Assembly (NCBI GenBank): GCA_048941265.1
Contig: JBHLNT010000019.1
Coordinates: 1-42,852 of the forward strand
DNA from: Promethearchaeota archaeon
GTDB lineage: Archaea > Asgardarchaeota > Lokiarchaeia > Sigyniarchaeales > SOKP01
DNA: 42,852 nt
Reading direction: 5' to 3'
Within the stretch, counting starts at the first letter, position 1. The number at the start of each line of letters is the position of its first letter. Below are positions 1,332 through 40,002 of this stretch, piece by piece. Made by a program: the position numbers and the translations under genes. The notes below the pieces were generated by a model. That model did no database searches. It was not told where the DNA came from and worked only from the letters and a program-made list of their open reading frames with translations.

Positions 1332-1351
1332 TTTTATGTTCTAAAAAATAT

Positions 1352-1410
1352 TTAGGAGGCAGTCCTATTGTCATTCTTTCACTATCTTTTATTGAAAGAA
1401 ATCATTCAAA
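1352..1410 (-). promoter_or_regulatory. SECIS-like element copy 1 (3' of the GDCCVxC gene) plus downstream hairpin
   Basis: Minus strand reads UUUG-AAU-GA-U-UUCUUUCA-AUAAAAGAUAG-UGAAAGAA-U-GA-CAA-UAGGA-CUGCC-UCCUA and starts directly after the TAA at 1411-1413. Confidence 0.85.
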
Positions 1411-1629
1411 TTATTCATTCGCAATTTTTTCTTGTATATGTAGTCACGGCACGTCACCATAAGTACAAAAGATTCAATCTCACCCATGGGGATTTTCATG
1501 ACCCCATATCGGTTTATTGCATCCTTGACAAGTAGTCCACATTAGTCATTGTTCTTTAGGTATTTTAAGGGTATTTATATATCCGCAATGAGGACATGTA
1601 ACATTACTTTCTGACTTGAAATCAATCAT
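1411..1629 (-). CDS. GDCCVxC-type small (seleno)protein, 72 aa, 4 predicted selenocysteines
   Basis: Missed by the ORF track. MIDFKSESNVTCPHCGYINTLKIPKEQULMWTTCQGCNKPIWGHENPHGUDUIFCTYGDVPULHIQEKIANE*. TGA at 1546-1548, 1480-1482, 1474-1476, 1444-1446. Matches the family pattern TCPxCG...C...CxxC...GDCCVFCSYGxVPC with TGA mostly at Cys positions; SECIS follows. Confidence 0.88.
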
Positions 1630-1713
1630 GTTAATCTCTTATAATGGTTTATGAATCTATAAACACTATACATCAGATTTATTATTAAAAATTTAGTATT
1701 TTAATATATAAGA

Positions 1714-1773
1714 TTAGGAGGCGGTCCTAATGTCAATCTTTCACTAAGATTTTTTGAAAGACGTCATCCAAAT
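1714..1773 (-). promoter_or_regulatory. SECIS-like element copy 2 plus downstream hairpin
   Basis: UUUG-GAU-GA-C-GUCUUUCA-AAAAAUCUUAG-UGAAAGAU-U-GA-CAU-UAGGA-CCGCC-UCCUA, starting within a few nt of the TAA at 1775-1777. Confidence 0.85.
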
Positions 1774-1774
1774 T

Positions 1775-2248
1775 TTATTTTAAAAAATAATGAGCAAAAT
1801 ATTCGTCATCCTTTCCGTATTTTTTAAGTAGAATAGTTTTAAATTTTCCAATATCTAATCTGTTTTTCACTTTCTCTCATCAACATCCTGAATCGGGTTG
1901 TAAATCAATTACACTATCAGCATATAAATTGAAACCTATATTATCTCGGAGCGGCATAAACTTTCTTAAATTCCCTTCATCGTCCAGACCATAGGGCATC
2001 AGTCCTACATCGTCATATATTTTGTTTTCTTCAGGATCCCAAAATAGTTGCAGATAATTGTGAATATAACCATCGAATATCGGGAAAATTGATTCTTTGG
2101 GATTTTCAAATACAAATTTGTCAACCATCGCTAAAGCTTCAACAAATGTCGCATTATCTTTAACAAAAACAACGAAATCTTTGCCTTTTGATAATCCGCT
2201 TAACGTCAAGCTTATTTTGAGTGTAATCTTTTTAATTTTAATAATCAC
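1775..2248 (-). CDS. Uncharacterised selenoprotein B with CUU motif (possible beta-grasp N-domain plus helical tail)
   Basis: The ORF track stops at TGA 1880-1882. A second TGA follows (1877-1879), then the frame continues EKVKNRLDIGKFKTILLKKYGKDDEYFAHYFLK-TAA, clearly homologous to the read-through tail of the upstream paralogue. Start uncertain (TTG 2281, GTG 2248 or ATT 2236). Confidence 0.85.
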
Positions 2249-2312
2249 CTTTGGTATATTAAAATTTTGAATATTTACCAAATTATTTATAAGTTTTAAT
2301 TATAAAGAATTT

Positions 2313-2370
2313 CAGGACGCAATCCTATTGTCAACCTTTCACAAGCATTTATTGAAAGATGTCATTCAAA
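2313..2370 (-). promoter_or_regulatory. SECIS-like element copy 3 plus downstream hairpin
   Basis: UUUG-AAU-GA-C-AUCUUUCA-AUAAAUGCUUG-UGAAAGGU-U-GA-CAA-UAGGA-UUGCG-UCCUG, directly after the TAA at 2371-2373. Confidence 0.85.
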
Positions 2371-2811
2371 TTATTTTATTTTAAATTTAAAGTAATGAGC
2401 AAAAGTTTCATGGTCTTTTCCGTATTTTTTCATAACAATCCGTTTAAATGTACCAAAATCTAATCTTTCTCGCATAACATCAGCTCATCAATCAGCATGA
2501 ACGGATAAAGTGATATTACTATCGGGATATAACTTTACATCAGCATTTTCCATTATAGGCATAAACTCTCTATTTGGACCATACGCATTAACCGCGCAAT
2601 CTTCATAAATCTTATTTTTTTCTGGATTCCAAATTAATTGAAGATAACTATGAATCAATCCCTTATATAAAGGAAAAATAGACTTTTCTGGATTTTCATA
2701 TATCTTTTTATCTATCTCACTTAATGCGTCAACAATAGTGCCCTCTTCATTAATTTTAACTTCAAAATCGATACCATTTGTAAGCGGTTTTTCCGGTGCG
2801 ATTATGGTCAA
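2371..2811 (-). CDS. Uncharacterised selenoprotein A with UU motif; paralogue of 1775..2248
   Basis: Tandem TGA at 2488-2490 and 2485-2487, then ADVMRERLDFGTFKRIVMKKYGKDHETFAHYFKFKIK-TAA. The first TGA aligns without gaps to a Cys (TGT) in the paralogue. Start may be ATA 2826 after GGTGGTGA. Confidence 0.85.
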
Positions 2812-2874
2812 TTTTATTCTCTTTATTTTTTCACCACCCTTGTATTTTAAATAAAATAGATTTTAAACAGATGA

Positions 2875-3264
2875 TTATTTAAGACCTTTATCCTTTAGGA
2901 GTTGAGGTAAATCCTTCTTTAATGCATAAGAAGTGGTATATTTTTTCTCTCCATCAACTAAAACACATTTGCTCCTTAAACCAAGCTGACGAGCCTCTTC
3001 AGAATTTAAGTTTTTTGTTTCATGTTTAATATACTTTATATAAGGTGTAAGTGCACTAAAAATAAGATTCATAAATTGCGACCACTCACAGGCGCATGCG
3101 TCGAGAGGCACATATATATCGACATTTAATTTATTTGGATCTAAAGGTTTTTTAATTACCTCATTAATTGAATCATTTTTGATATCAATGTCATCACTTG
3201 CACAGCAGGATGAGTTAGGTGTACAACAGGGGCTTTCAATTTTATTTACTTCTTTTTCTTCCAT
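2875..3264 (-). CDS. Cys-rich putative metal(loid)-binding protein, thioredoxin/ArsD-like
   Basis: N-terminal CC..CC (SPCCTPNSSCC), then VDIYVPLDACAC and a CVLVDGEKKY strand reminiscent of thioredoxin-fold/ArsD proteins; lies in an ars-type operon. Confidence 0.5.
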   Translation of the reverse strand: MEEKEVNKIESPCCTPNSSCCASDDIDIKNDSINEVIKKPLDPNKLNVDIYVPLDACACEWSQFMNLIFSALTPYIKYIKHETKNLNSEEARQLGLRSKCVLVDGEKKYTTSYALKKDLPQLLKDKGLK

Positions 3265-3325
3265 ATAATTTCACTTCCAATTTTGATTTAGATTTAATTA
3301 ACTTATTCCAATATTAAATTCCAAT

Positions 3326-3637
3326 TTAACCACAGCATGAGTTTTGTTGTGAATTTTTTGCTCTTTGACGAGCATCCCACAAACAACCACATCCCTTTTG
3401 TTCCTGCATAATAATAGCTTGAGTAGGGCAATTTCTAAAACAAGCACTACATTCAGTGCAAAGTTCTGGATGCTTAATTTCATATTTACCAGAATTAATT
3501 TGTTGAGGTAGCCCGAAAGGGCATACTTCACCACATAATCCACATCCAATGCATGCAGAATCACTAATAAAAATACGAGGTAGTTCAATTGTTTGAGGAG
3601 TGCAACATGAACTCTCATTTGCTTTTAATTCTGTCAT
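3326..3637 (-). CDS. hgcB: HgcB-like 2[4Fe-4S] ferredoxin
   Basis: Two CxxCxxCxxxCP motifs (CIGCGLCGEVCP, CTECSACFRNCP), a GCGC segment and a C-terminal CC; directly downstream of an hgcA-like gene. Confidence 0.72.
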   Translation of the reverse strand: MTELKANESSCCTPQTIELPRIFISDSACIGCGLCGEVCPFGLPQQINSGKYEIKHPELCTECSACFRNCPTQAIIMQEQKGCGCLWDARQRAKNSQQNSCCG

Positions 3638-3678
3638 ATTTATCTTTTTTATTGTTTTATTTTTTTTAATTCTTTATT

Positions 3679-5328
3679 TTAAATTATATAAAATATTATT
3701 CCAAAAGCTAAAAAAATTAAGCTTATAATTAGTAAAATTTTATTAATTCGCGAAAATAAGAGGTATTCTGCCTGAATCTCTCTAGGACTTGTTGACATTG
3801 TATATCCGCTAAAAGACATCGTTGAAAAAAAGGCGATCCAAAAATAAAAGCTCAAGTTCCAGAGAATAAAGAGAAATGATTGATATAATATCCAAGAAAT
3901 CCCTCCAAAAATTATTACGTTTAAAGTTCCAAAGAATAATCCTTTAATAATAAATCTTCTCGTGAAGTTTGAAATAGGTAATAAAAGAGCAATAAGCATA
4001 TTTGTTAAAATAATCCAAATGAATATTTCACCTATCCACCATAGCTTATTTGACCAATTCAATGCTAGCAGTAAAAATACTATTCCTATTAAAGGCAAAA
4101 GAAAAATTTTTCGCAAAAGAAATGTTGTATGCGTTATTCCTGCCCGGATTCGATGGGATATCGAGAATTTGGCAAGTTTCATATTATCTGGTTTTTGTTT
4201 CGGTCTTTCTTTAATATACTTCGTAATATCCTTAGACCATATTGGACCATAGACAATTTTAAATGGAAATTCTTCAGAATTTTTCGGCAATTGTGGTATA
4301 GCAACACCACCGGCAGAGAGTTGGGGGAGTATTAAGATCTTCTTGCGTGTAAGATTGTGAATTCCAGTTGCCTCAACAGCTTCAAGTAATTGTTTATTAC
4401 CAAAATCGTTTCCACGAGCAGCACACCATACATTAATGCCATTAGAATCAACACATAAAACCCATGCATCAATTCCTTTTAGACTACGCATTACTTTTAT
4501 ATATGTATATTCATAATTCGCTGTAACTATTATCGGTGAATATTCATCAGGATGTCCTGATTGATAGATTCCTGGTTCTACCGGAACACGGTCAATCTGA
4601 CCCGTGAACAAACACCGATAAATCCTTAATTGAGAGCGAATCCCTTTAAATCTTTTAAGGTTGGGGCGATAATATCCTGGAGTATCACCATCCTTTACTA
4701 ATTCTATGGCTTGTATGGAACCATGTTTCCAAGATTTTTGGGCATTAATTTTAAAGCCGATTGGTTCGATATAATTAATGAACCATTTTACGAGAAAGGT
4801 ACTTTTTAATCGGAGTCTGTGTAATTTCTTTTTAAACCACCACCGCTTTAATTTAAAAATTAGCTTCCAAAAGCCCGAAGGAATAGTTTCTGCGGCTAAT
4901 ATTAATCGCCCATCTGGTTTCAGTGAGTTCCAGGCATTTCGTAAAAATATTTGTTGCTCAAGAGGTCTAAGTTCAGATAACATAAAAGTACTTACGACTA
5001 TATCCTTTGAGCTCTTTTCAATCGGAAAATCCTTAAGTGATCCTATTTGATATAAAAGATTGACATTTGCCTCAGATGGATAATTTTGCATGGCATAATT
5101 AATCATTTGGAAGTTCTTATCAATTGCAACCACATTATTTCCTTTTATTGCCATTTTCTTCGCAAGAGTACCAGTGCCACAGCCTACCTCTAGTATGGAT
5201 TGGGAATCCTGAATACAATCTAATACCCACTCTTGAACATCAAGATTTACACCCTTAGTAAGAGCTGTAAATTTTGAATCATAAGTTTCTGGCTCTTCCT
5301 CCAATTTTCGCATATAAGTTACGGCCAT
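3679..5328 (-). CDS. hgcA: Fusion of a class I SAM methyltransferase (CpaM-like) with an HgcA-like corrinoid protein and C-terminal TM helices
   Basis: LEVGCGTG SAM motif I; VEPGIY..G.PD..SPIIVTANY and GINVWCAARG cap-helix-like motif (canonical N(V/I)WCA(A/G)GK); LILPQLSAGGV; about 5 C-terminal TM segments. Confidence 0.75.
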   Translation of the reverse strand: MAVTYMRKLEEEPETYDSKFTALTKGVNLDVQEWVLDCIQDSQSILEVGCGTGTLAKKMAIKGNNVVAIDKNFQMINYAMQNYPSEANVNLLYQIGSLKDFPIEKSSKDIVVSTFMLSELRPLEQQIFLRNAWNSLKPDGRLILAAETIPSGFWKLIFKLKRWWFKKKLHRLRLKSTFLVKWFINYIEPIGFKINAQKSWKHGSIQAIELVKDGDTPGYYRPNLKRFKGIRSQLRIYRCLFTGQIDRVPVEPGIYQSGHPDEYSPIIVTANYEYTYIKVMRSLKGIDAWVLCVDSNGINVWCAARGNDFGNKQLLEAVEATGIHNLTRKKILILPQLSAGGVAIPQLPKNSEEFPFKIVYGPIWSKDITKYIKERPKQKPDNMKLAKFSISHRIRAGITHTTFLLRKIFLLPLIGIVFLLLALNWSNKLWWIGEIFIWIILTNMLIALLLPISNFTRRFIIKGLFFGTLNVIIFGGISWILYQSFLFILWNLSFYFWIAFFSTMSFSGYTMSTSPREIQAEYLLFSRINKILLIISLIFLAFGIIFYII

Positions 5329-5353
5329 ATTTAATCCTCCAAATCTTTTTAGT

Positions 5354-6415
5354 TTATTCTGGGGGGTTCCAAAAGCCTCGCTTTTGAAGATATCTTCCTA
5401 AATAAACTATTGAAAGCATAACAGGAACTTCCCAGAACAATCCCATTGTAGTTCCTAATGCGGCAATCGATCCAATCCCATATATGGCAATCGCAGTAGC
5501 AATTGCAATTTCGAAATGACTTGAAGAGCCGATAATTACTGTGACAACAGCCTCTTTGTATTTAAGCTTAAAAAGCTTGGTAATAATCACATTATAGCTA
5601 ACAACGATTGCAAATCCAACCAGGAGAGGTATGCTAACTAAGAGTAAAAGTTCAGGATTTTTAAGTAAAACGTCTCCATTTAATGAAAAAAGGATAATCA
5701 ATGTTATTAGTAGTGCTACAACTGAAACTTTTCCTACCATAGGACGATAGGTGCCTTCAAACCATTCTTCCCCTTTTTTTTGTGTTAATAATCTTTTAGA
5801 TATTAATCCTAACGCTAAGGGGAGTCCTATAAAGAATATCAATGAAATTATTAATAAAGTTGTATCAATTGGAATATTTTGGATGCCAGTTAATAGAACA
5901 ACGATAGGAACATAAAGAAATATAATTGTTATGGTATTTAAACTGGTATTGGTGACATTTTGCTCTTGGTTTCCTCTAGCCATCCAACCCCATACAAGGA
6001 CCATTGCAGTACATGGTGAAGCAGAAAGTAAAATAATTGCTACTATTAACTGTTCATGACCAGCTAAAAAGATCCTTGCCATCATTAAACCAACAAAAGG
6101 GGCTACAATCCAATTAGAGATTAAGGTTAAAATTATCGGTTTTGGATTTTTCCCTAATTTTTTCAATTCAGATGCCTGGAGATTTAGCATTCCTGGATAC
6201 ATCATCAAGAATAGACATATCCCAATAGGAATAGAAATTTGGCCGATTGACCAGGAATTAATGGTTTCGCTAATTCCTGGAACAACTTGAGAAAGTACTA
6301 TTCCGGCAAGAATGCATAATGCCACCCATAGTGGTAAAAATTTACCAAAGAGACCTAATTCATGGGGTGTTCCTGCTTTATTTCTTATATCATTTTTAGC
6401 TTGTAGTTCACTCAT
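5354..6415 (-). CDS. acr3: Acr3-family arsenite efflux transporter
   Basis: PIGICLFLMMYP, NWIVAPF, ASPCTAMVLVW (conserved Cys), SSHFEIAIATA and EVPVML motifs; about 10 TM. Confidence 0.93.
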   Translation of the reverse strand: MSELQAKNDIRNKAGTPHELGLFGKFLPLWVALCILAGIVLSQVVPGISETINSWSIGQISIPIGICLFLMMYPGMLNLQASELKKLGKNPKPIILTLISNWIVAPFVGLMMARIFLAGHEQLIVAIILLSASPCTAMVLVWGWMARGNQEQNVTNTSLNTITIIFLYVPIVVLLTGIQNIPIDTTLLIISLIFFIGLPLALGLISKRLLTQKKGEEWFEGTYRPMVGKVSVVALLITLIILFSLNGDVLLKNPELLLLVSIPLLVGFAIVVSYNVIITKLFKLKYKEAVVTVIIGSSSHFEIAIATAIAIYGIGSIAALGTTMGLFWEVPVMLSIVYLGRYLQKRGFWNPPE

Positions 6416-6417
6416 TT

Positions 6418-7164
6418 TTAATTAACCTCATTTAATAGTAGTCTAGAAGTACTCATCCTTCTAGAATATTCATCTCTCATGTTATCGATGAATTGCCTTA
6501 AATTCTCATTAATTTGAGATAAATCTTCAGGAGGTATAGCATTTAGAAGTGATACTAGGTGATTGATTCCAGCAACTTCCTTATCGCATGTGTGACCAAA
6601 CCGTGGAGCGCGACATTCATGGCAGACACTTAAGGCAAAATTTTGAAGATTTTCTGTGTTAAAATCCTTATCTAAAAGAAATTTTGCCCCAGCTTCAGAG
6701 GAACCGCATAGTGAAGATCGCTTTACTATAATTTCTCTAAATTTACCATCTTCATCAATTTTAGGCTCATATATAGGTCTTCCGTAAAAAGTCGTAAATT
6801 CATCTACTTCTGGTATTCCCGTATCATTTTCTAGAGAACACATAGTTGGAGCATGAATGACTTGAGGATTTATTTTTCTCGCTTGAATTAATAGCCCTAC
6901 ACCGGGCAATACACCGAGTATTAACGGCTTCTGAAGTTCTGCTAGTTCTAAAATAAGATCAGGATGTCGAACGTAAGAAATGTATATATCGCAATCGGGG
7001 ATATTAAGTTTAAAATCATCATCCAGCATTAGATTAGAAGGTATTTCAGGAACCAGAATCCATACTACTTCAAAATTCTTCTTAATATTTTCAAAAGCTC
7101 TTTCACCGTACTTTCCATCTGACACTAATCCAACTTTTAAATTTTTAAATAAATGAGATGTCAT
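6418..7164 (-). CDS. DUF166-family protein
   Basis: GKYGERA, HPDL, CSL, RSSLCGS and CRA motifs typical of archaeal DUF166; first gene of the operon. Confidence 0.65.
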   Translation of the reverse strand: MTSHLFKNLKVGLVSDGKYGERAFENIKKNFEVVWILVPEIPSNLMLDDDFKLNIPDCDIYISYVRHPDLILELAELQKPLILGVLPGVGLLIQARKINPQVIHAPTMCSLENDTGIPEVDEFTTFYGRPIYEPKIDEDGKFREIIVKRSSLCGSSEAGAKFLLDKDFNTENLQNFALSVCHECRAPRFGHTCDKEVAGINHLVSLLNAIPPEDLSQINENLRQFIDNMRDEYSRRMSTSRLLLNEVN

Positions 7165-7234
7165 TATTCAATTTTCTTTAAAATATGGGTTAAAATATAT
7201 TTTTAAGGTTCAAGATATTAATAGAATTAATCAG

Positions 7235-7280
7235 ATTTATACTTATCGATTTGGACGTTAAATTTATATTTATCGATTTG
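7235..7280. promoter_or_regulatory. Candidate ArsR operator: 19-bp direct repeat
   Basis: ATTTATACTTATCGATTTG (7235-7253) and ATTTATATTTATCGATTTG (7262-7280), 18/19 identical, in the divergent promoter region. Confidence 0.45.
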
Positions 7281-7327
7281 TTATATATTATAGAGAATTA
7301 AAGATTTTTCAAATTTTTGTAAATATT

Positions 7328-7729
7328 GTGATAATCATGAATACTAAACGTAAGGCTGAACTAATGGATATGTTATGCTCATGTAATGGTGTATGCAGTT
7401 CTAGTAAACATTTTGAGGATTTACAATTTATAGGGCAAGAATTAAAGTTTGATGAAAATTACGTAAATATGGCTAACTTTGGAACTGCGATTTCGTCTAT
7501 AGAACGTCTAATCATTCTCAATTCGTTAAAAGAAAAAGATAGATGCGTTTGTGAACTCGAAGCGATCCTTGATAAGTCACAATCTACAATTTCTCATCAT
7601 CTTAGGAAGCTAGAGAGAGCAAATTTGATAATGAGTTGGAAAAAGGGTAGTTATACTTATTACGGATTAAAAAAGGAACAATTACAGTCATTTTTAGAAA
7701 TATTGAATAAGGTATTTAATTCTGTTTGA
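7328..7729 (+). CDS. arsR: ArsR/SmtB metal(loid)-sensing repressor
   Basis: RCVCEL...SQSTISHHLRKL wHTH (ELCVCDL-like As(III) site) plus N-terminal CSCNGVC; divergent from acr3. Likely start is ATG 7337. Confidence 0.9.
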   Translation: MIIMNTKRKAELMDMLCSCNGVCSSSKHFEDLQFIGQELKFDENYVNMANFGTAISSIERLIILNSLKEKDRCVCELEAILDKSQSTISHHLRKLERANLIMSWKKGSYTYYGLKKEQLQSFLEILNKVFNSV

Positions 7730-13340: not shown

Positions 13341-13361
13341 TTGTGAGGAAATGATAAAAAA

Positions 13362-13880
13362 ATGAATGAGATATCAATTTTAATGCATATGTTAAGTAAT
13401 AAAAATAATTTATACCAAATAGGTGCTACCAAGAAGGAGATTTTACATTCTCTTAATGTTAAATATAAAAATAAAAGCGGGTATTTCCAAAATTTAATAA
13501 CTAACTTATCTAAATATATTGAACCACTGGGACTTCAAATAAGATACAACCCCATCAATTCTCATTGGTTTATATCTTACGATTCAGACATTTCTGATCT
13601 TATTTCGGCTAATCCATTTGATAATAAACCAAGATTAGCCGCAACACTATTCTGCACTTTAGTACTTTGTCTTAAAAACCCTGATGGAATATCATCAATG
13701 GCTGAAATTGAAAAAATTAGAAAAAAAAAGAACATTCTTGATGATTTGAACGATTTAGAACAAAAGGGTTATTTAGAAATTGATAAGGTCTTGAATAACG
13801 TAAAACTTACTCCTCTAATAGGATATCAATTAGATCTTGAAAAACTCTTTGTAAAATTAGCTTTAAAATTTAAAGTATGA
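13362..13880 (+). CDS. KITE-like tandem winged-helix subunit (ScpB/Nse1/Nse3-like)
   Basis: 172 aa with two predicted wH units (LSKYIEPLGLQIRY; LNDLEQKGYLEI...VKLTP); position in the smc operon. Confidence 0.55.
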   Translation: MNEISILMHMLSNKNNLYQIGATKKEILHSLNVKYKNKSGYFQNLITNLSKYIEPLGLQIRYNPINSHWFISYDSDISDLISANPFDNKPRLAATLFCTLVLCLKNPDGISSMAEIEKIRKKKNILDDLNDLEQKGYLEIDKVLNNVKLTPLIGYQLDLEKLFVKLALKFKV

Positions 13881-13960: not shown

Positions 13961-15157
13961 TCAATTCATTTTTAGAATCTTCATAAAATTTTCCACTCCT
14001 TTATGGGGATTATAGCTTAAGTATGGGCTTGCAGTAATCGGGATTGAACTAATTGGATCCAAATATCTACCAGTAAAATTAATGATTATTGTTTTTGATT
14101 CAATAATACTTTTCGATTTGAGTGCTCCGATTATGGCGATAAATCCACTTTTTTCAAGTTCAAATAATTTGGTGCCAATTTCTATAGTTGGATACACTCC
14201 GATTTTAACGAGTATTTTAAGAATTTTTTCTTTGTAATGAAATAATTCTTCTTTCGTAATTTGGGCAGGATATATACGACCACCTGCTTTTCTCCATTTT
14301 ATGAAATTTTCTATAGCAAAAACGGGGCAAGTACTGCCTAAAGTTGTCTCTATGGTAGGAGTTTTGTAAAGCCGTTTTTCAAAAATTGATAAGGGATTAT
14401 TTCCTTTAGAATATTCATTTAATGCGTCGGCTATCGGTGTAGAATTTCCAACCGATGGTTGGACTATTAAAATTTCTGGATTTAACCTTAATTGAGTTGC
14501 ATATTCTATTAATCCTGCTGGCCCTATACCCCCGGAAACAGTCTGAACATAACATATATCATTTTCAAACATATTCATACGATTCAAAGCAAGGCCAATT
14601 TGACTGTAAGCCGCTGTTTTAAGATACACATCAGATATGGCAACAACATAATTTTCAAGCATTTTTTCCTTAAGTTTAGAAGCAAAACCTCTTATGCTTT
14701 CTAAGGTTGAATTTTTTAAGACAACAAATTTAACATAAGGATTCCCATCAATTGCACTTCTGGCAACTTTATAAGAGGAGATCTCGGGAACGATTAGAAT
14801 AGCATTTATATTTTTAGCCATTAATTGATTATATTGGTAAATTGCTCTAGCCATGCTCTCAACAGTGTTACCTGAAGATGTTGAAATTATGAAATCAATC
14901 TTTTTTTTATCATATATATGAAAAAAATAATTACTATCAGTATCCTTAAATGTTGGTGTGCTCCAGAAAATCCCATAGACTCTTTTTTTCGAGAAAAATT
15001 CTGAAATATCTTTAAGATGAATAGGAATTACAGGAAAATAATTAGATACAACTCGCTTGCCTGTTAATTTTAAATAAATCACATCACTAAATTTCCACTC
15101 ATACCCCCCTATAAAACTTTTAAGGTCTATATTTGACATTTTCATCCCTCCTAACAA
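13961..15157 (-). CDS. PLP-dependent fold-type II enzyme, threonine-synthase/cysteate-synthase-like
   Basis: PTFKD (PLP lysine), STSSGNT, YVQTVSGGIGP and NFTG motifs; clustered with comDE. Likely start is ATG 15145 or 15139. Confidence 0.7.
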   Translation of the reverse strand: MLGGMKMSNIDLKSFIGGYEWKFSDVIYLKLTGKRVVSNYFPVIPIHLKDISEFFSKKRVYGIFWSTPTFKDTDSNYFFHIYDKKKIDFIISTSSGNTVESMARAIYQYNQLMAKNINAILIVPEISSYKVARSAIDGNPYVKFVVLKNSTLESIRGFASKLKEKMLENYVVAISDVYLKTAAYSQIGLALNRMNMFENDICYVQTVSGGIGPAGLIEYATQLRLNPEILIVQPSVGNSTPIADALNEYSKGNNPLSIFEKRLYKTPTIETTLGSTCPVFAIENFIKWRKAGGRIYPAQITKEELFHYKEKILKILVKIGVYPTIEIGTKLFELEKSGFIAIIGALKSKSIIESKTIIINFTGRYLDPISSIPITASPYLSYNPHKGVENFMKILKMN

Positions 15158-15163
15158 ACTGTA

Positions 15164-20070: not shown

Positions 20071-20808
20071 GTGATTATTATGACTTTAGGGGATTTACCT
20101 GAAATAGAGTTATTTCATGGAATATTTACATTAATAAATGTAATTATTTCAATTGTAATTGGATTGAGAATTGCCTCAAAATATGTTGAATATAAACGAA
20201 AAGAATTATTAACTGTTGGACTTAGTCTAACTTTTGGAGGTTCAGTTTATTGGTCAAGCGTGATAGCATTTATTACTATTATTTTTTTTAATTATGAACC
20301 GGGATTAGCATTTCACATGGCTTTCCACATCTTTCCTCCTATTGGTTTACTTCTATGGATTTATTCAATTTCTCTACTACTTTATCCAAAATCACTGAAA
20401 AAAATCGTTGTTATTTTTACAGTAATTTGTATGGTATATGAGTTCTTTCTTTTATATTACTTACTAACAGACCCTTCCTTGCTTGGCCGGCGTACTGGCA
20501 TTATTCTTAATGAAACATATCTTTTAATCAATAGTTTTCTATTATTTTCGGTATCAGTAATAGTTATTACAACAGTTTTATTCACACGGCAATCGCTTAA
20601 ATCAGATGACCCTAGAATTCGATGGAAAGGGAAATTTATATTTATCGGGACAATACTCTTTCTGATAGCTGGTACAATCGGCATTATAATTCCGGATTCA
20701 CCTGTTCAAATTGTATTAACAAGAACAATATACATAATTGGTTCTATTGCGAGTTATATAGGTTGGTTATTACCAGAACGGATTGCAAAGTTGCTTATAA
20801 AAGATTAA
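20071..20808 (+). CDS. Stand-alone 7TM membrane protein (paralogue of 594 and 29250)
   Basis: About 7 TM; SDDPRIRWKGK and YIGWLLP motifs. Likely start is ATG 20080. Confidence 0.7.
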   Translation: MIIMTLGDLPEIELFHGIFTLINVIISIVIGLRIASKYVEYKRKELLTVGLSLTFGGSVYWSSVIAFITIIFFNYEPGLAFHMAFHIFPPIGLLLWIYSISLLLYPKSLKKIVVIFTVICMVYEFFLLYYLLTDPSLLGRRTGIILNETYLLINSFLLFSVSVIVITTVLFTRQSLKSDDPRIRWKGKFIFIGTILFLIAGTIGIIIPDSPVQIVLTRTIYIIGSIASYIGWLLPERIAKLLIKD

Positions 20809-23449: not shown

Positions 23450-23543
23450 ATATGTTTTAATAGAAATTAAATATATTTATATTAAGATTATTTATAAATA
23501 TAAATCCTAATCAAATTAAGTAATTTTTTCCAAGGTATAAAAA

Positions 23544-24419
23544 ATGCAAACCATGATTATAACTCCCAATCCAGAAGACCCAGAGGTTAAATTATTAACA
23601 TCTGAATTTAATAAAAGAGGATACGATGTTCAATATTTTATTCCATCAACTATTAAAGTGAAAGTTAATATCAGCAAATTTGAAGACCAATTTATCAATC
23701 TCGAACCAAGACGCATCTTAGTAAGAGGATTCGGGGCAAATGTAACTCAAAAAATTTTTTTCAGACTCGATATATTGAGAGCTATTGAGAAATATGGAAT
23801 TAGGCTAATAAATTCTAGGGAATCCTTAGAGATTGCGAGTGATAAATTTTTAACATCTGTTTTTTTAGAAAAGCATGATATTCCGACACCTAGAACAATA
23901 ATTTGTGAGGATCCCCATGATGCTTTGCAAATGTATGAAGAACTTGGGGGTGATGTGATTCTTAAGCCTTTATTTGGTTCAAAAGGTATTGGAATCTCAC
24001 GATTAAATGATAAAGGATTTGCAGAAAATGTAATAATTACTTTAGGTCAGCTAAATGAGGTTTTTTATTTACAGGAGTTCATTGAACACTATAATCGCGA
24101 TATTAGAATTTTCGTTATTGGAAATGAGGCGATCGCTGGCATGTATCGGGTAAGTGATAATTGGAAGACAAACGTGTATGCTGGTGCAGAAGTTAAGCCA
24201 TTAGAACTTACAGAGGAATTAGCAAAATTAGCAATCAAATCAGCGCAGGTTACTAAAACTGAAATCGCTGGGATTGATATATTAGAAAGCGAAGATGGGT
24301 ACTATGTAATTGAAGTAAATTCAATCCCCGGTTTCACTGCTTTACAAAAAGTTGTTGATGTTAATATTCCTGAACGAATTATCACTTATTTTTTGGAAGA
24401 AGTTGAGAAAAATTCTTGA
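23544..24419 (+). CDS. RimK/MptN/CofF-family ATP-grasp alpha-L-glutamate ligase
   Basis: DKF, IPTPRT, LKPLFGSKGIG, YLQEFI, DIRIFVIG, WKTNV, GIDIL and IEVNSIPGF motifs. Confidence 0.88.
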   Translation: MQTMIITPNPEDPEVKLLTSEFNKRGYDVQYFIPSTIKVKVNISKFEDQFINLEPRRILVRGFGANVTQKIFFRLDILRAIEKYGIRLINSRESLEIASDKFLTSVFLEKHDIPTPRTIICEDPHDALQMYEELGGDVILKPLFGSKGIGISRLNDKGFAENVIITLGQLNEVFYLQEFIEHYNRDIRIFVIGNEAIAGMYRVSDNWKTNVYAGAEVKPLELTEELAKLAIKSAQVTKTEIAGIDILESEDGYYVIEVNSIPGFTALQKVVDVNIPERIITYFLEEVEKNS

Positions 24420-26762: not shown

Positions 26763-27641
26763 ATGAAAGATTTTAAAGGTAAAGTGGCAGTTATCACTGG
26801 TGCGGCTAGTGGTATTGGTCGTGGAATTGCCAACAGAGCAGTTAAGGAAGGCATGAAAGTAGTTTTAGCTGATATAGAGGCAGACGCATTAAGACAAGCA
26901 GAAAAAGAGCTAAAATCTTCTGGAGCAACTATATTAGCAATATTGACAGATGTTTCGAAAGCTGAAGATATTGAAATGCTAGCGCAAAAAACCATAGATA
27001 CGTTTGGGGAAGTCCATTTATTATGTAATAATGCGGGCACTGCTCCATATGGAGTTACGTGGGAATGTTCCCTTTCCGACTGGAAATGGATTATTGATGT
27101 AAACTTATGGGGCGTGATTCATGGTGTTCGGACTTTTATACCCATCATGTTGAAACAAGATAATGAATGTCACATTGTAAATACGGCTTCTCTTTCTGGT
27201 CTAATGGCAAATGAGATTGGACAAGGAATGTATATAGTAACAAAATATGGAGTTGTGGGCTTGACTGAGATTATCGCTAAAGAACTTTCCCTTTTGAAAT
27301 CAAAAATTAAGGTTCATGCACTTTGCCCGGGAATGGTAAAAACAAGACTTATTGATTGCGAGCGAAATCGTCCTGATGAATTATGTGATGATATTACTGA
27401 ACATATAGGTCATCCTGAATTGGCACAAGTCTGGGAAGCTATGTATGGATTAGCTAAAGCGGGAGAATTACCTGATAAGGTTGGTGATATTGTATTTGAA
27501 GCAATTAAAGAGGATATCTTCTATATTTTAACCGATACCAAGCTTTATTATAGAAGAATGATCCAAACTCGAAATGAGGATATCATGGAAGCATATAAAC
27601 AGAATAAAAAAATACATAAATTACTAGAGAAGAAGTATTAA
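26763..27641 (+). CDS. Short-chain dehydrogenase/reductase
   Basis: TGAASGIG, NNAG and YIVTK motifs. Confidence 0.92.
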   Translation: MKDFKGKVAVITGAASGIGRGIANRAVKEGMKVVLADIEADALRQAEKELKSSGATILAILTDVSKAEDIEMLAQKTIDTFGEVHLLCNNAGTAPYGVTWECSLSDWKWIIDVNLWGVIHGVRTFIPIMLKQDNECHIVNTASLSGLMANEIGQGMYIVTKYGVVGLTEIIAKELSLLKSKIKVHALCPGMVKTRLIDCERNRPDELCDDITEHIGHPELAQVWEAMYGLAKAGELPDKVGDIVFEAIKEDIFYILTDTKLYYRRMIQTRNEDIMEAYKQNKKIHKLLEKKY

Positions 27642-27697: not shown

Positions 27698-28582
27698 ATG
27701 AAAGAATTTAAAGATAAAGTGGCAGTTATCACTGGTTCGGCAAGTGGGATCGGTCGCGGTATAGCGAGAAGAGCTGCCAAAGAGGGCATGAAAGTGGTAT
27801 TGGCTGATATAGAAAAAGACCCTCTAATTCAAATCGAAGAAGAATTAAAATCTTCGGGAACAGATGTAATATCCGTGTTGACTGATGTTTCAAAAGCTGA
27901 AGCTATTGAAAACTTAGCTCAGAAAACCATTGATGCGTTTGGGGAAGTCCATTTATTATGCAATAACGCCGGGGTTGCCGCTCCGGGGCTTCTTTGGGAG
28001 TGTACTCTATCAGATTGGAATTGGGTAATGGGAGTAAATCTATGGGGTGTCATTCATGGGATTCGAACTTTCATTCCGATCATGCTTCAGCAAGATAATG
28101 AATGTCATATTGTTAATACTGCATCCAGCGCAGGATTAGTTCCTGGAGAACCGGGAAATGGAATTTATAGTATCACTAAACATGGAGTAGTCGTCCTTTC
28201 CGAGAATCTACGAGCAAGTTTTATGCAATTAGGGAGTAAAATTGGTGTTTCAGTGCTTTGTCCGGGATTTGTAAATACTAATATTATGGATAGCGAAAGA
28301 AATCGTCCAGCAGAATTTTGTGATCCGGACTATGAACCATGCTTAGAAAGGATTGTAAAAAATCATCCTGAAATGGAACAGTTTATTAAAGCTTTTATAA
28401 CATCGTTAGAAGAAGGGACATCTGCTGATAAAGCAGGCGATATTGTATTTGAGGCGATGAAGAACGACATTTTTTATATATTAACTGAAACCGGATTAAT
28501 GTGGAAAAGATTTATAAAAACTCGATTTGATGGAATTATGGAAGCATTTAATCAGAATAGACCTATATTAAAAGGGCTATAA
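27698..28582 (+). CDS. Short-chain dehydrogenase/reductase (tandem paralogue)
   Basis: TGSASGIG, NNAG and YSITK motifs; highly similar to the preceding gene. Confidence 0.92.
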   Translation: MKEFKDKVAVITGSASGIGRGIARRAAKEGMKVVLADIEKDPLIQIEEELKSSGTDVISVLTDVSKAEAIENLAQKTIDAFGEVHLLCNNAGVAAPGLLWECTLSDWNWVMGVNLWGVIHGIRTFIPIMLQQDNECHIVNTASSAGLVPGEPGNGIYSITKHGVVVLSENLRASFMQLGSKIGVSVLCPGFVNTNIMDSERNRPAEFCDPDYEPCLERIVKNHPEMEQFIKAFITSLEEGTSADKAGDIVFEAMKNDIFYILTETGLMWKRFIKTRFDGIMEAFNQNRPILKGL

Positions 28583-29249: not shown

Positions 29250-29996
29250 TTGGGTGATTTTTTGGGGATAGAACAATTATCAGAATTAGAAATCCTTCAT
29301 GGTATTTTTACTACAATATTCGTTGTAATATCTTTATTGGTTGGATTAAAGATATTACTGAAATATTTTGAGCACAAACGCACGGAATTAGTTGCTGTTG
29401 GAATTGCATGGATGGGAATGTCGACTCCATGGATAGGAAATTCATCTTCCTTTTTATTATATGTATTATTCGGGTATAGACTTGAAATATTTCCATATCT
29501 TTTTATGGAGAATGCATTTATTCCATTAGCTTTAATATGTTGGATTTATGCCTTTTCTACTCTTGTCTATCCAAGGTCGGTAAAAAAAATAACGGTCACT
29601 TATGCAATAATATGTCTTACTTATGAAACATTTCTAATAGCAGCTTTAATAGTAGATCCGAAGATTATCGGATCACTTGAGGGGATGTTTGATTCCAACC
29701 ACACTCTTATTCCTAATTTATTTAGAGTTTTTGGAATTTTCACAGTTCTTATTACGGGGGTCATATTCGCTAAGAAATCTTTGATTTCAGATGAACCATC
29801 AATTCAATGGAAGGGGAGATTTATGTTAATAGCTATGATTTCTTTTACGGTAGGTGCTTTTCTGGATGCAGTACTTACATTTACACCATTGCAATTAGTA
29901 TTAGTTAGACTTTTATTAATATCCAGTTCTATTGAATATTATTTAGGATTCTTTTTACCAGACTTTGTTGCAAATCGATTGATAAAAAAGGAATAA
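29250..29996 (+). CDS. Stand-alone 7TM membrane protein (paralogue of 594 and 20071)
   Basis: About 7 TM; SDEPSIQWKGR and YLGFFLP motifs. Confidence 0.7.
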   Translation: MGDFLGIEQLSELEILHGIFTTIFVVISLLVGLKILLKYFEHKRTELVAVGIAWMGMSTPWIGNSSSFLLYVLFGYRLEIFPYLFMENAFIPLALICWIYAFSTLVYPRSVKKITVTYAIICLTYETFLIAALIVDPKIIGSLEGMFDSNHTLIPNLFRVFGIFTVLITGVIFAKKSLISDEPSIQWKGRFMLIAMISFTVGAFLDAVLTFTPLQLVLVRLLLISSSIEYYLGFFLPDFVANRLIKKE

Positions 29997-34625: not shown

Positions 34626-35333
34626 GTGAACCTTACAATTTCGAAAAAAAATGAGATTAAAGATTTTGAAGCTAAAATACTTGAGTATATTACAAGAAAT
34701 CCAGACGGCGTTACTATTACTGATATAGCAGATGAGACAGAAATCTCAAGAAATACAGTTTCGAAGTATGTGTCGATTTTAGGAGTCAAGAAGAAGATTT
34801 TTAGTCGGAAAATAGGCGCCTATAAATTATATTTTTGCGCGGAGAGAGATTCATTTTCAAAATTATATATTATAGCATATTATAAAGGTCTTTTACATGG
34901 TTTAAAAGAAAATTTTCCTGATTCAGAAGAGATTTTTAAAAATATTGGACGGACTTGTTATAAATATATAGATTTTTCTTTAGGGCCAATGATTTCAAAA
35001 GAACTGAAAGGCTTTAAAGTGAATCGCCTTTTGAAACTTTATTATGAAGTATTTGGGAAGTTTTTTCCGACATATAGTGTTGTACAACCAACAATTGAAA
35101 TATCATCAAGAAAGATTAATGGGAATAAAACAGGGAGCATACTCAAATTCGCAAATTCAGCATTTTTACAAGACTCTGACGATTTTATACTACATGCCCA
35201 TATTATTGCTGGAATACTTGAGGAACTTTGGGATGTAGAAGTTAGAAGGAAAATAAAATGCAATGTTGGGAAGGTCCATATTTCTGAAAGGAAAGAGGAT
35301 TCTTATTATGAATTAGTTATAGAGAGATTATAA
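34626..35333 (+). CDS. wHTH plus V4R/HNOX-like regulator, copy 1
   Basis: GVTITDIA...SRNTVSKY..IL HTH; IGR and H.IIAGILE..C motifs of V4R-like domains. Confidence 0.75.
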   Translation: MNLTISKKNEIKDFEAKILEYITRNPDGVTITDIADETEISRNTVSKYVSILGVKKKIFSRKIGAYKLYFCAERDSFSKLYIIAYYKGLLHGLKENFPDSEEIFKNIGRTCYKYIDFSLGPMISKELKGFKVNRLLKLYYEVFGKFFPTYSVVQPTIEISSRKINGNKTGSILKFANSAFLQDSDDFILHAHIIAGILEELWDVEVRRKIKCNVGKVHISERKEDSYYELVIERL

Positions 35334-37140: not shown

Positions 37141-37851
37141 ATGGTGAAGATTGCCATTTCAAAGAAAAGTGAATCTATTGATTATGAATCTAAGATTTTG
37201 GAATGTATAAGAGAAAACCCAAGTGGTATTACAATAACGGACATAGCAAAAGCCAAGGGATTTTCAAGAAATACGATTTCTAAATATGTTTCTATGCTTG
37301 AACTTAAAGAGAAGATATTTAAAAGAAAAGTTGGGGCATACAACTTATATTTTAGTTCTAAAAAAAGTTATTTCCCAAAGGAGATTATTTCATCGTATTA
37401 TAAAGCAATTCTATCAGGATTGAAGAAAAACTATCCAAATGACGAGGAAGTTTTTAAAGATATTGGACGTAATAGTTTAAATTTCATCGATTTTTCATTT
37501 GGTCCTACAGTTAGGAAAGGCTTAAAGAGCTTGCGGAACATTCCCATCCCTAAATTGTATTTTGAAGTTTTTGGCAGATTTTACCCATCATATGATATTT
37601 TGCAACCTTCAATTGAAATTTCCGAGCCAATGATGGATGAATCAGGAAATAAAGCGGTTTATAGATTTAAAAATTCAGAGTTTTTAAATAAAACGAAAGA
37701 TTTTATTTATCATTTTTATATTGTATCTGGAATTATTGAGGCATTGTGGGAAAGGGAAATGGAGAGACCAGTAGAATGTAAGGTTGAAGAAATCCATGTT
37801 GGTAATAACAAAAACGATGCTTTCTTTGAATTATCTATTGAGATAAAATAG
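37141..37851 (+). CDS. wHTH plus V4R/HNOX-like regulator, copy 2
   Basis: Paralogue of 34626 and 39295 across the full length. Confidence 0.75.
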   Translation: MVKIAISKKSESIDYESKILECIRENPSGITITDIAKAKGFSRNTISKYVSMLELKEKIFKRKVGAYNLYFSSKKSYFPKEIISSYYKAILSGLKKNYPNDEEVFKDIGRNSLNFIDFSFGPTVRKGLKSLRNIPIPKLYFEVFGRFYPSYDILQPSIEISEPMMDESGNKAVYRFKNSEFLNKTKDFIYHFYIVSGIIEALWEREMERPVECKVEEIHVGNNKNDAFFELSIEIK

Positions 37852-39294: not shown

Positions 39295-40002
39295 GTGAAG
39301 TTTGTTATTAGCAAGAAAGTTCAAAGCAAGGACTATGAAGCTGAAATTTTGGAATATATTAAACAGAATCCAGGAGGAGTTACAATAACAGATATTGCAA
39401 GTGGAACCGAACATTCACGCAATACGGTTGCTAAATATATTTCCATACTCGAAAATAGAAGTAAAATATTCCGTAAAAAAATTGGGGCTTATTATCTCTA
39501 TTTTATGGGAAAACAGGGCTATTTTCCAAAAGAGATCACAATATCATACTATAAAGCGATATTAGCAGGATTAAGAAAACACTTTCCTGACAAAGAACAC
39601 ACTTTTAAGCAAATAGGAAGAGAAGCTTTGCAATATATTGATTTTTCTTTTGGTCCAACGATTAAAAGACAGATGAAAGTGATAAAAGGAAGTCCGATCA
39701 TCAAGTTATATTTTGAAATATTTAAGAATTTTTACACTTCTTACGATTTACTTCAGCCAACTATAGAAATATCTGATCCTGAGATAGATGAAACAGGTAT
39801 GAAGGCTAAATATAGATTTACTAAATCAGAATTTTTAGAAGATACAGATGAGTTTATATATCACTTTCATATGGCAGTTGGGATTATGGAAGCTATTTTT
39901 TCTAGGGAGATAGGACGAACCGTTGAATGTAATATAGAAGATATACATATCTCTGATAAAAAAGAAGACTCCTATATAGAAATCTCAGTAGATATTAAAT
40001 AA
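39295..40002 (+). CDS. wHTH plus V4R/HNOX-like regulator, copy 3
   Basis: Paralogue of 34626 and 37141. Confidence 0.75.
   Translation: MKFVISKKVQSKDYEAEILEYIKQNPGGVTITDIASGTEHSRNTVAKYISILENRSKIFRKKIGAYYLYFMGKQGYFPKEITISYYKAILAGLRKHFPDKEHTFKQIGREALQYIDFSFGPTIKRQMKVIKGSPIIKLYFEIFKNFYTSYDLLQPTIEISDPEIDETGMKAKYRFTKSEFLEDTDEFIYHFHMAVGIMEAIFSREIGRTVECNIEDIHISDKKEDSYIEISVDIK

Follow-up and report, generated by a model that had tools for sequence, protein, structure and literature searches.

Three Loki-type SECIS candidates behind small genes with in-frame TGA codons in a Promethearchaeota contig

The closest described system is lokiSECIS, a selenocysteine (Sec) insertion sequence (SECIS) element which, in the main text of its original description (Mariotti et al. 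2016, PMC4989117), consists of an AUGA motif, a 9-bp stem, an 11-nt apical loop and a GA after the stem, lies near the end of the coding sequence, and has a loop whose first five positions carry adenines and whose last, an 'ultraconserved' G, mostly follows an A. Its published descriptor was derived from Loki PrxL, VhuU and HdrA-VhuD genes (PMC4989117). Here, three elements of this architecture were analysed on the minus strand of a 42,852-nt stretch of Promethearchaeota DNA (assembly GCA_048941265.1, contig JBHLNT010000019.1, positions 1 to 42,852 of the forward strand; hereafter the window), each directly behind a small gene with in-frame TGA codons (genes A, B and C). Judged by sequence comparison, the elements are very probably real SECIS, and they are taken with high confidence to be functional ones of the Asgard lokiSECIS kind, each in the 3′ untranslated region (UTR) of its own small selenoprotein gene. 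Because the published descriptors fit, the element itself is assigned to the known lokiSECIS class; new are chiefly the genes that the element flags, together with a second hairpin and comparative support of this depth.

In a later model, the type I eSECIS-like element (Huang et al. 2024, PMC11227280), the core is GA_[G/A]A, the stem may have 7-15 bp and the loop 8-20 nt; Mariotti et al. are cited in the same text for the overlap of a stop UGA with the AUGA. Standard SECIS tools find nothing in Loki or Asgard genes, according to the passages of PMC4989117 and PMC11227280 that treat them, and no SBP2 is known in Asgard archaea as far as the main texts of PMC4989117 and PMC9723677 go. The method of Huang et al. 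(PMC11227280) starts from known families, and the Asgard list given in its main text comprises seven selenoprotein families, a list repeated in the text of a 2026 review (PMC13188914); HdrA, Prx and MvhD are reported by Sun et al. (2021, PMC9723677; main text).

Position and predicted fold of the three copies

A repeat search of the window returned a minus-strand family of three 72-nt copies (1344-1415, 1706-1777 and 2304-2375; 76-82% identical). The elements begin 5, 7 and 5 nt past the TAA stop codons of genes A, B and C, which contain 2, 2 and 4 in-frame TGA codons, respectively (coordinates in Table 1); a position directly behind each TGA-containing gene had been proposed in a preliminary description of this DNA made from its letters alone. 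The consensus given there, ATGAYNTCTTTCA-N11-TGAAAGNNTGACA, was matched three times without mismatch, always on the minus strand (1369-1405, 1731-1767 and 2329-2365), with no further match in the window when up to three mismatches were allowed and none in 100 dinucleotide shuffles, and the covariation pointed out there was recovered, the first Watson-Crick stem pair being A-U, G-U and U-A across the copies and the second being U-G in copy 1. The accompanying remark that the element had been noticed only after these three genes also held for the window, since a covariance model built from 64 related elements (both strands, E<=1) and a sequence-free lokiSECIS descriptor each returned these three sites only.

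Each copy as RNA reads UUG-RAU-GA-Y, eight paired positions, an 11-nt loop, eight paired positions and U-GA-CAA. The upper stem comprises eight Watson-Crick or G-U pairs and one Y.U position, nine positions in all, in the three copies, with AUGA directly 5′ and GA directly 3′ of the stem in each. The apical loops (AUAAAUGCUUG, AAAAAUCUUAG and AUAAAAGAUAG) all end in G, preceded by A in two of the three, so that all lokiSECIS features are present in 3/3 copies except for this penultimate A (2/3); the type I eSECIS-like model also fits. The sequence fits a kink-turn (3-bp C-stem, R-A-U bulge, GA facing GA), which would give the element a kink-turn-like core. The predicted fold consists of a UUG/CAA lower stem of 3 bp, an RAU bulge, a tandem G.A/A.G core formed from AUGA and GA, a nine-position upper stem, an 11-nt loop of the form A-N-AAA-N3-U-A-G, and then a hairpin, UAGGA-loop-UCCUA.

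This second hairpin (UAGGA-N5-UCCUA), absent from the preliminary description, lies one base 3′ of the kink-turn hairpin in all three copies, and both hairpins were recovered in the RNAfold minimum-energy fold of copies 1 and 3.

Related elements and the gene families they follow

Related loci were collected by a pattern scan of 185,579 species genomes, in which AUGA, the top five stem pairs, the loop pattern A-N-AAA with its last G, and GA were fixed, producing 61 matches at 59 loci, the window not among them. All 59 loci are titled as Asgard metagenome-assembled genomes or as 'uncultured archaeon', with no bacterial title, the Asgard titles being Promethearchaeota/Promethearchaeia, Hod-, Hermod-, Thor- and Odinarchaeota. 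Locus L056 is syntenic with the window and carries three elements at spacings of 569 and 354 nt. The 61 matches and the three window copies were placed in one alignment (A2; 64 rows, 76 ungapped columns), which was used for all covariation counts.

In this alignment, the three stem pairs left free by the scan are kept by changes on both sides in 10, 6 and 4 sequences, with at most one broken pair each: pair 20-46 is A-U in 39, G-U in 14, U-A in 6, G-C in 3 and C-G in 1 sequence (1 broken), pair 21-45 is U-A in 51, U-G in 7, C-G in 5 and G-C in 1, and pair 22-44 is C-G in 59 and U-A in 4 (1 broken). Within the lower stem, pair 13-50 is G-C in 63 sequences, with A-U in the remaining one, and pair 12-51 shows 12 double changes and is unpaired in 9. 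Overall, 94.7% of the cells in paired columns are paired, versus 88.1% in shuffled alignments (0 of 500 reach the observed value) and 43-56% with slid partners. Outside the scan pattern, G13 (63/64), the loop U36 (64/64) and C50 (63/64) are near-invariant.

A covariance model (R1) was built from this alignment and run over 266,018 bases comprising the window and the related loci, producing 75 matches at E<=1, of which 72 scored at least 38 bits and the remaining 3, at E 0.7-0.9, were treated as noise. Eight matches lie beyond the pattern; their stems show compensatory changes at positions which the scan had fixed (for example L039:790 and L029:3779). The sequence-free lokiSECIS descriptor, applied to the same DNA, gave 72 sites versus 0-3 in each of 20 shuffles, and 70 of these sites lie inside R1 matches. 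The other two stand right behind a two-Sec VhuD gene in L038 and L044; their stem (AUAAUGUGA/UCGCAUUAU) is quite different, and the 11-nt loop (AAAAAUCCUGG) and the GA-C are kept. VhuD is a published Loki selenoprotein, so that the architecture of the window elements also occurs behind an established selenoprotein gene in a related genome.

The second hairpin (alignment columns 53-67) was aligned to the covariance model in 72 of 72 strong matches. It covaries, double changes being seen at pairs 53-67 (11), 54-66 (5) and 57-63 (4), and contains near-invariant columns (G55 63/64, G56 64/64, loop G60 63/64, C64 and C65 63/64 each). The VhuD element of L038 and L044 is also followed by a hairpin, with UUGC in its loop. 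Stacked directly after the 3-bp lower stem, the second hairpin might, speculatively, stabilise that stem or act as a second contact; with its near-invariant GG/CC pairs and loop G-C, it may provide the ribosome or a SECIS-binding factor with a second point of contact. Perhaps by coincidence, its 5′ strand looks like a Shine-Dalgarno sequence and its 3′ strand like the 16S rRNA tail. The hairpin is not mentioned in the text passages of PMC4989117 and PMC11227280, the figures and supplements of which lay outside the comparison.

Pairing between the 5′ flank and the flank after the second hairpin was also considered. This outer helix had a mean energy of -2.97 kcal/mol for cognate flanks versus -2.38 kcal/mol for non-cognate flanks (one-sided Mann-Whitney p = 0.014, 64 sequences, relatedness not controlled). 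It is clear only in a subset (L008, L014, L026, L031, L035 and the VhuD element of L038), where it would give a three-way junction; in the minimum-energy fold of the L038 VhuD element (L038:655-720), a 4-bp outer helix closes both hairpins. With a weak signal that is clear in this subset only, the helix is not claimed as a general part of the element.

Upstream genes were classified with a profile of the family of genes A and B (the UU family, for Sec-Sec) combined with three-frame reading. Of the 72 strong R1 matches, 65 lie directly behind a UU-family gene and 3 directly behind a GDCCVxC gene (window, L056 and L025), so that 68 of 72 stand directly behind genes with conserved in-frame TGA. 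The preliminary description had named model matches lying mostly behind genes without in-frame TGA as the outcome that would speak against it, and the opposite was seen.

In 64 of the 72 matches, TGATGA occurs in frame at a distance of 106-138 nt (median 122) upstream of the AUGA; the corresponding distances from the second TGA are 119 nt in gene A and 109 nt in gene B, and the four TGA codons of gene C lie 38, 68, 74 and 140 nt before the AUGA. The first stop after UU in those 64 genes is TAA in 43, TAG in 4 and TGA in 17. In the 47 genes ending in TAA or TAG, the element lies 1-21 nt past the stop codon, and the TGA stops mostly end 2-19 nt before the AUGA, with the stop in 5 genes being the UGA of the AUGA itself. 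From these distances we infer that a UGA 38-140 nt upstream would be decoded and that a UGA no more than about 19 nt from the core, or part of it, would terminate, which is a simple pattern.

Genes A and B are paralogues (47% identity) in which TGA TGA is followed in frame by about 37 more conserved codons ending in ...FAHYF. In an alignment of 46 sequences, the (near-)invariant columns R124, D126, K131, G139, K140, H147, Y148 and F149 all lie past the UU site, and the region downstream of TGA TGA is, judging from this alignment, under protein-level constraint. An AlphaFold2 model of gene A computed with the 46-sequence alignment is beta-grasp-like (mean predicted local distance difference test score, pLDDT, 91.6; predicted template modelling score 0.89), the UU loop being its least confident stretch (block pLDDT 75). 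Neither gene matched a Pfam or NCBIfam family, and a Foldseek search of the Protein Data Bank (PDB) with the gene A model found no match at E<=0.001, its weak best matches being ubiquitin-like, Urm1 and transcobalamin beta domains. The first canonical start of gene A is a TTG at 2811. Both genes share an N-terminal motif, (I/V)K(K/R)IKL (window 2811-2835 and 2251-2281), which in gene A lies upstream of this TTG, and the true start of gene A may be a non-canonical codon.

A word-index protein search with the UU family gave 146 proteins at E<=0.001 from 158 candidates, the best 120 of the 146 being examined. Among the matches listed, annotated as 'hypothetical protein' from Prometh-, Hod-, Thor- and Lokiarchaeota, most have a length of 107-118 aa and a query coverage of 66-75%, that is, they end at the TGA. 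The ten longer homologues inspected that run through the site (124-164 aa) have WW there in every case, from which it follows that they were called under translation table 4; P0016 ends at the site. Trp is read at TGA sites in the public gene calls P0003-P0006, P0008-P0010, P0013, P0014, P0018 and P0123. Since the listed calls end at the TGA or read Trp-Trp, these proteins stand under wrong sequences in the collections. A profile search of 1.84 billion representatives gave 54 clusters at E<=0.001, most ending near profile position 110; among 12 of these clusters inspected, 3 distant members have GC-IT or GC-IS at the UU site and P0143 has WW. The family divides into the subtypes HAD-UU-AD, GC-UU-E and SSA-U-G-UU-AK, the last with three Sec. 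In the UU gene at L041:1540-1989, a third in-frame TGA (DI-U-NFKT) stands where relatives have Gly, which could reflect either an additional Sec or an error in sequencing. From the titles of the records, the UU (Sec-Sec) family appears here only in Asgard-labelled entries. UU genes with conserved TGA TGA and a SECIS-like element also occur in records titled Odin-, Hod- or Hermodarchaeota (L009, L011, L012, L025, L033, L043, L059, L024 and L046); loss of Sec in Heimdallarchaeia and Odinarchaeia is reported in the main text of Sun et al. (2021, PMC9723677), and the discrepancy points to imprecise labels or to a wider use of Sec than reported.

Gene C was compared with the NCBIfam family NF041374, named 'GDCCVxC domain-containing (seleno)protein', under different readings of its TGA codons. 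Read as Cys, it scored 50.7 bits (cut-off 40) over the whole profile (1-58 of 58); read as W, G or X, it scored 36.7, 40.2 and 37.8 bits, the Cys reading thus scoring roughly 13 and 14 bits higher than X and W, respectively. The syntenic gene of L056 behaved in the same way (56.8 versus 42.1 bits), and a homologue of gene C keeps 4/4 TGA positions. Because the score falls with W, G or X, the TGA codons of gene C are placed on Cys/Sec columns. Gene C matches the whole family profile and differs from the family in having four putative Sec codons in 72 residues, in an archaeon. A sequence search of the PDB with gene C gave chance zinc-ribbon matches only, a full-text literature search for 'GDCCVxC' found no paper, nor is the name used in the main text of the Haft preprint, which deals with new selenoprotein families. 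The UU and GDCCVxC families are absent from the main texts of the published Asgard selenoprotein lists, the supplements of which lay outside the comparison; within the same limits, no published report of either as an archaeal selenoprotein was found.

Proposed decoding of TGA and alternative explanations

In the mechanism proposed, a SECIS-binding factor would recognise the fold, the candidates being L7Ae, some other protein or the archaeal Sec elongation factor itself. The factor would bring EFSec-GTP-Sec-tRNASec to ribosomes paused at a UGA 38-140 nt upstream, which would then be read as Sec. A UGA within about 19 nt of the core, or in the AUGA, would terminate, presumably because the ribosome has by then unfolded or occluded the element, with the lower stem opened. 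Two consecutive Sec in the UU genes and four within 35 codons in gene C would imply an efficient and processive Sec system. The preliminary description had suggested that one SECIS per cistron acts locally on the gene just upstream; this is plausible here and does not generalise, as published Loki HdrA-VhuD pairs share one element in the passages of PMC4989117 that describe them.

Several observations weigh against this assignment. No Rfam family was matched at its gathering score in the window, and at E<=10 positions 1200-2600 gave neither a SECIS nor a kink-turn family, in agreement with the failure of standard tools reported in PMC4989117 and PMC11227280. The single copies did not fold more stably than shuffles (z -0.09 to -1.9), so that the support for the element is comparative, not thermodynamic. 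The window contains none of tRNASec, EFSec, PSTK, SepSecS and SelD, with 0 tRNA genes and no such family among the open reading frames (ORFs) scanned. No Cys-Cys form of the UU site was seen among the homologues inspected, and the usual pairing of Sec with Cys is therefore found for gene C only. Four of the 72 strong matches are exceptions to the position behind a TGA-containing gene: two near-identical, full-scoring elements (L038:1974-2049 and L044:1987-2062) are orphans with no same-strand upstream gene, the element at L018:691-767 (75.2 bits) follows a 223-aa DUF5714 gene with Cys-Cys and no TGA, and the element at L020:3840-3911 has lost its AUGA. The 65 UU-associated matches are not independent events, because they are largely co-inherited with the gene, and independence rests on three or four unrelated families: UU, GDCCVxC, VhuD and the one DUF5714 gene. 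That gene (L018:691-1484, minus strand) comes closest to the NCBIfam model of the double selenoprotein MbdU, where it scores 83.5 bits, far below the cut-off, and it may represent a recent Sec-to-Cys conversion with the SECIS kept.

Both orphan elements lie in opposite orientation just past an HdrA - VhuD (2 Sec) - FrhB-like gene cluster. Three weak Rfam matches in the window (snoU18, RT-16 and BsrC; E 2.7-6.6) fall within coding regions or on the opposite strand and were set aside.

The two orphans, the copy behind a Cys-only gene, and the concentration of 65 of 72 strong matches behind one family, in which the association with TGA is phylogenetically non-independent, would also suit a gene-family-specific 3′ element unrelated to UGA decoding, either a stabilising or terminator hairpin or a regulatory kink-turn bound by L7Ae, with TGA TGA then read by some other mechanism or ending the protein. 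L7Ae-bound kink-turns do have other roles in archaea. Such an element, and with it such a fate of the TGA codons, is nevertheless quite unlikely, as the same element stands behind the unrelated four-TGA GDCCVxC gene at 3 loci and the same architecture behind VhuD, a known selenoprotein, at 2, the fit is to a descriptor derived independently from Loki PrxL, VhuU and HdrA-VhuD, and the nearest NCBIfam model of the Cys-only gene is itself a double selenoprotein. Moreover, all 46 aligned sequences show protein conservation in the frame past TGA TGA, so the UGA codons of UU genes must be decoded.

Decoding by a changed genetic code, with TGA read as Trp (table 4) or Gly (table 25) and the repeat being an ordinary intergenic one, might be read from the W at TGA sites in several public homologue calls and from the AT-rich composition of the window (GC 0.26-0.35). 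Against this, other genes of the window use TGA as a true stop (ArsR, 7262-7729; a RimK-like gene, 23541-24419; a 400-codon gene, 13961-15163), 4 of 35 long frames end in it, and the TGA-ending frames of at least 100 codons include family-supported genes matched to the profile end, which makes genome-wide reassignment unlikely. In-frame TGA is confined to three adjacent small genes, the GDCCVxC profile scores of the W and G readings fall below that of Cys as given above, and most of the listed homologues, at 107-118 aa, end at the TGA, as expected for table 11 calls; reassignment is accordingly judged very improbable. An RNA gene lying between the genes, box C/D-like or otherwise non-coding, is suggested by the likeness of GRAUGA to the box C consensus and of UGA-C to that of box D, which together would form a terminal kink-turn. 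There are, however, no C′/D′ boxes or guide regions, only one C-like and one D-like motif, the two joined by a perfect 29-nt hairpin; no C/D family matched the minus strand at E<=10, and the position is fixed at 1-21 nt past the stop in 47 TAA- or TAG-ending genes, which leaves an RNA gene of this kind an extremely remote prospect.

The alignment of 72 elements from many metagenome-assembled genomes, with its compensatory changes, invariant loop U and G, and second hairpin, can guide a search for the archaeal SECIS-binding protein. More tentatively, and with some doubt, the Asgard SECIS can be proposed as a two-hairpin unit (in some copies with a three-way junction) that marks a multi-Sec group, missing from the published lists, across Asgard lineages. 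This putative group, seen so far in Asgard archaea only and with some carrier records labelled Hod- or Odinarchaeota, lineages described in the literature as having lost Sec, may consist of the beta-grasp UU family (Sec-Sec) and the four-Sec GDCCVxC protein, and may be tied to arsenic- or mercury-type gene clusters.

Gene neighbourhood and comparison with known SECIS classes

Genes A, B and C end a minus-strand cluster of metalloid type, the whole stretch of which (2875-7729) includes a divergent ArsR gene (Table 1). At locus L018, the Cys-rich ORF has its homologue in the C-terminal domain of an ArsM arsenite methyltransferase, next to which lie a UU gene and an ArsR-like gene. By analogy with these neighbours, a guess would be that the Sec proteins handle arsenic-, mercury- or selenium-type compounds.

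Table 1. Coordinates of the genes, putative SECIS copies and neighbouring features in the window
Feature	Position	Strand	Details
Gene A, UU family, subtype HAD-UU-AD	2371..2835	-	TGA TGA 2485-2490; TAA stop 2371-2373
Gene B, paralogue of A, subtype GC-UU-EKV	1775..2281	-	TGA TGA 1877-1882; TAA stop 1775-1777
Gene C, GDCCVxC-domain (seleno)protein, 72 aa	1411..1629	-	in-frame TGA 1546-1548, 1480-1482, 1474-1476, 1444-1446; TAA stop 1411-1413
SECIS copy 1	2304..2379 (76-nt model span)	-	covariance-model match 83.2 bits
SECIS copy 1, C-stem	5′ strand 2367-2369; 3′ strand 2328-2330	-	
SECIS copy 1, core	bulge + AUGA 2362-2366; GA 2331-2332	-	
SECIS copy 1, upper stem and loop	stem 5′ 2353-2361; 11-nt loop 2342-2352; stem 3′ 2333-2341	-	
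SECIS copy 1, hairpin 2	2313-2327	-	
SECIS copy 2	1706..1781	-	AUGA 1764-1767; GA 1733-1734; hairpin 2 1715-1729; 80.3 bits
SECIS copy 3	1344..1419	-	AUGA 1402-1405; GA 1371-1372; hairpin 2 1353-1367; 87.6 bits
Cys-rich ORF	2875-3264	-	
HgcB-like ferredoxin	3326-3637	-	
CpaM-methyltransferase/HgcA-like corrinoid fusion	3679-5328	-	motif NVWCAARG; below HgcA cut-offs
ACR3 arsenite efflux gene	5354-6415	-	
DUF166	6418-7164	-	
ArsR	7328-7729		divergent from cluster

Elsewhere in the window, the ORF at 13347-13880 (plus strand, 177 codons) ends in TGA, with its frame open for 44 more codons to a TAG; it has no SECIS-like element nearby and no family match. Two sets of three paralogous ORFs without family match occur on the plus strand (34626-35333, 37141-37851 and 39295-40002; 594-1331, 20071-20808 and 29250-29996). 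Tandem SDR paralogues are found at 26763-27641 and 27698-28582.

The gene content of the window is archaeal. Methanogen-type archaeal SECIS resemble the window elements in lying in the 3′ UTR close behind the gene and, as proposed here, in working with archaeal-type Sec machinery, and differ from them in structure, the window copies being without the GAA_A bulge, the GC-rich 10-bp lower stem and the 3-bp GC upper stem of that type; the stems of the window elements are AU-rich. Eukaryotic SECIS (form 1) are alike in the 3′ UTR position, the non-Watson-Crick AUGA...GA core, the apical adenines and the expected kink-turn-like core, and differ in that helix II of eukaryotic SECIS measures about 12-15 bp, whereas the upper stem of the window elements has nine positions and the lower helix only 3 bp. 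The term 'eukaryote-type' in the preliminary description applies in the sense of resemblance alone, given the shorter upper stem, the 3-bp lower stem and the lack of any Rfam SECIS match at E<=10.

With lokiSECIS and the type I eSECIS-like element, the window elements share the core, the stem, the loop, the 3-bp lower stem and a stop codon near or overlapping the AUGA. They differ from lokiSECIS, as presented in the main texts, in a stem (UCUUUCA/UGAAAGA) that is nearly fixed in the window elements and their relatives and is specific to these genes, in the conserved 3′ hairpin, and in standing behind gene families outside the published Asgard lists, so that the Loki-type SECIS, a proposed bridge between archaeal and eukaryotic Sec decoding, would serve more than the seven Asgard families listed in the main texts of 2024-2026.

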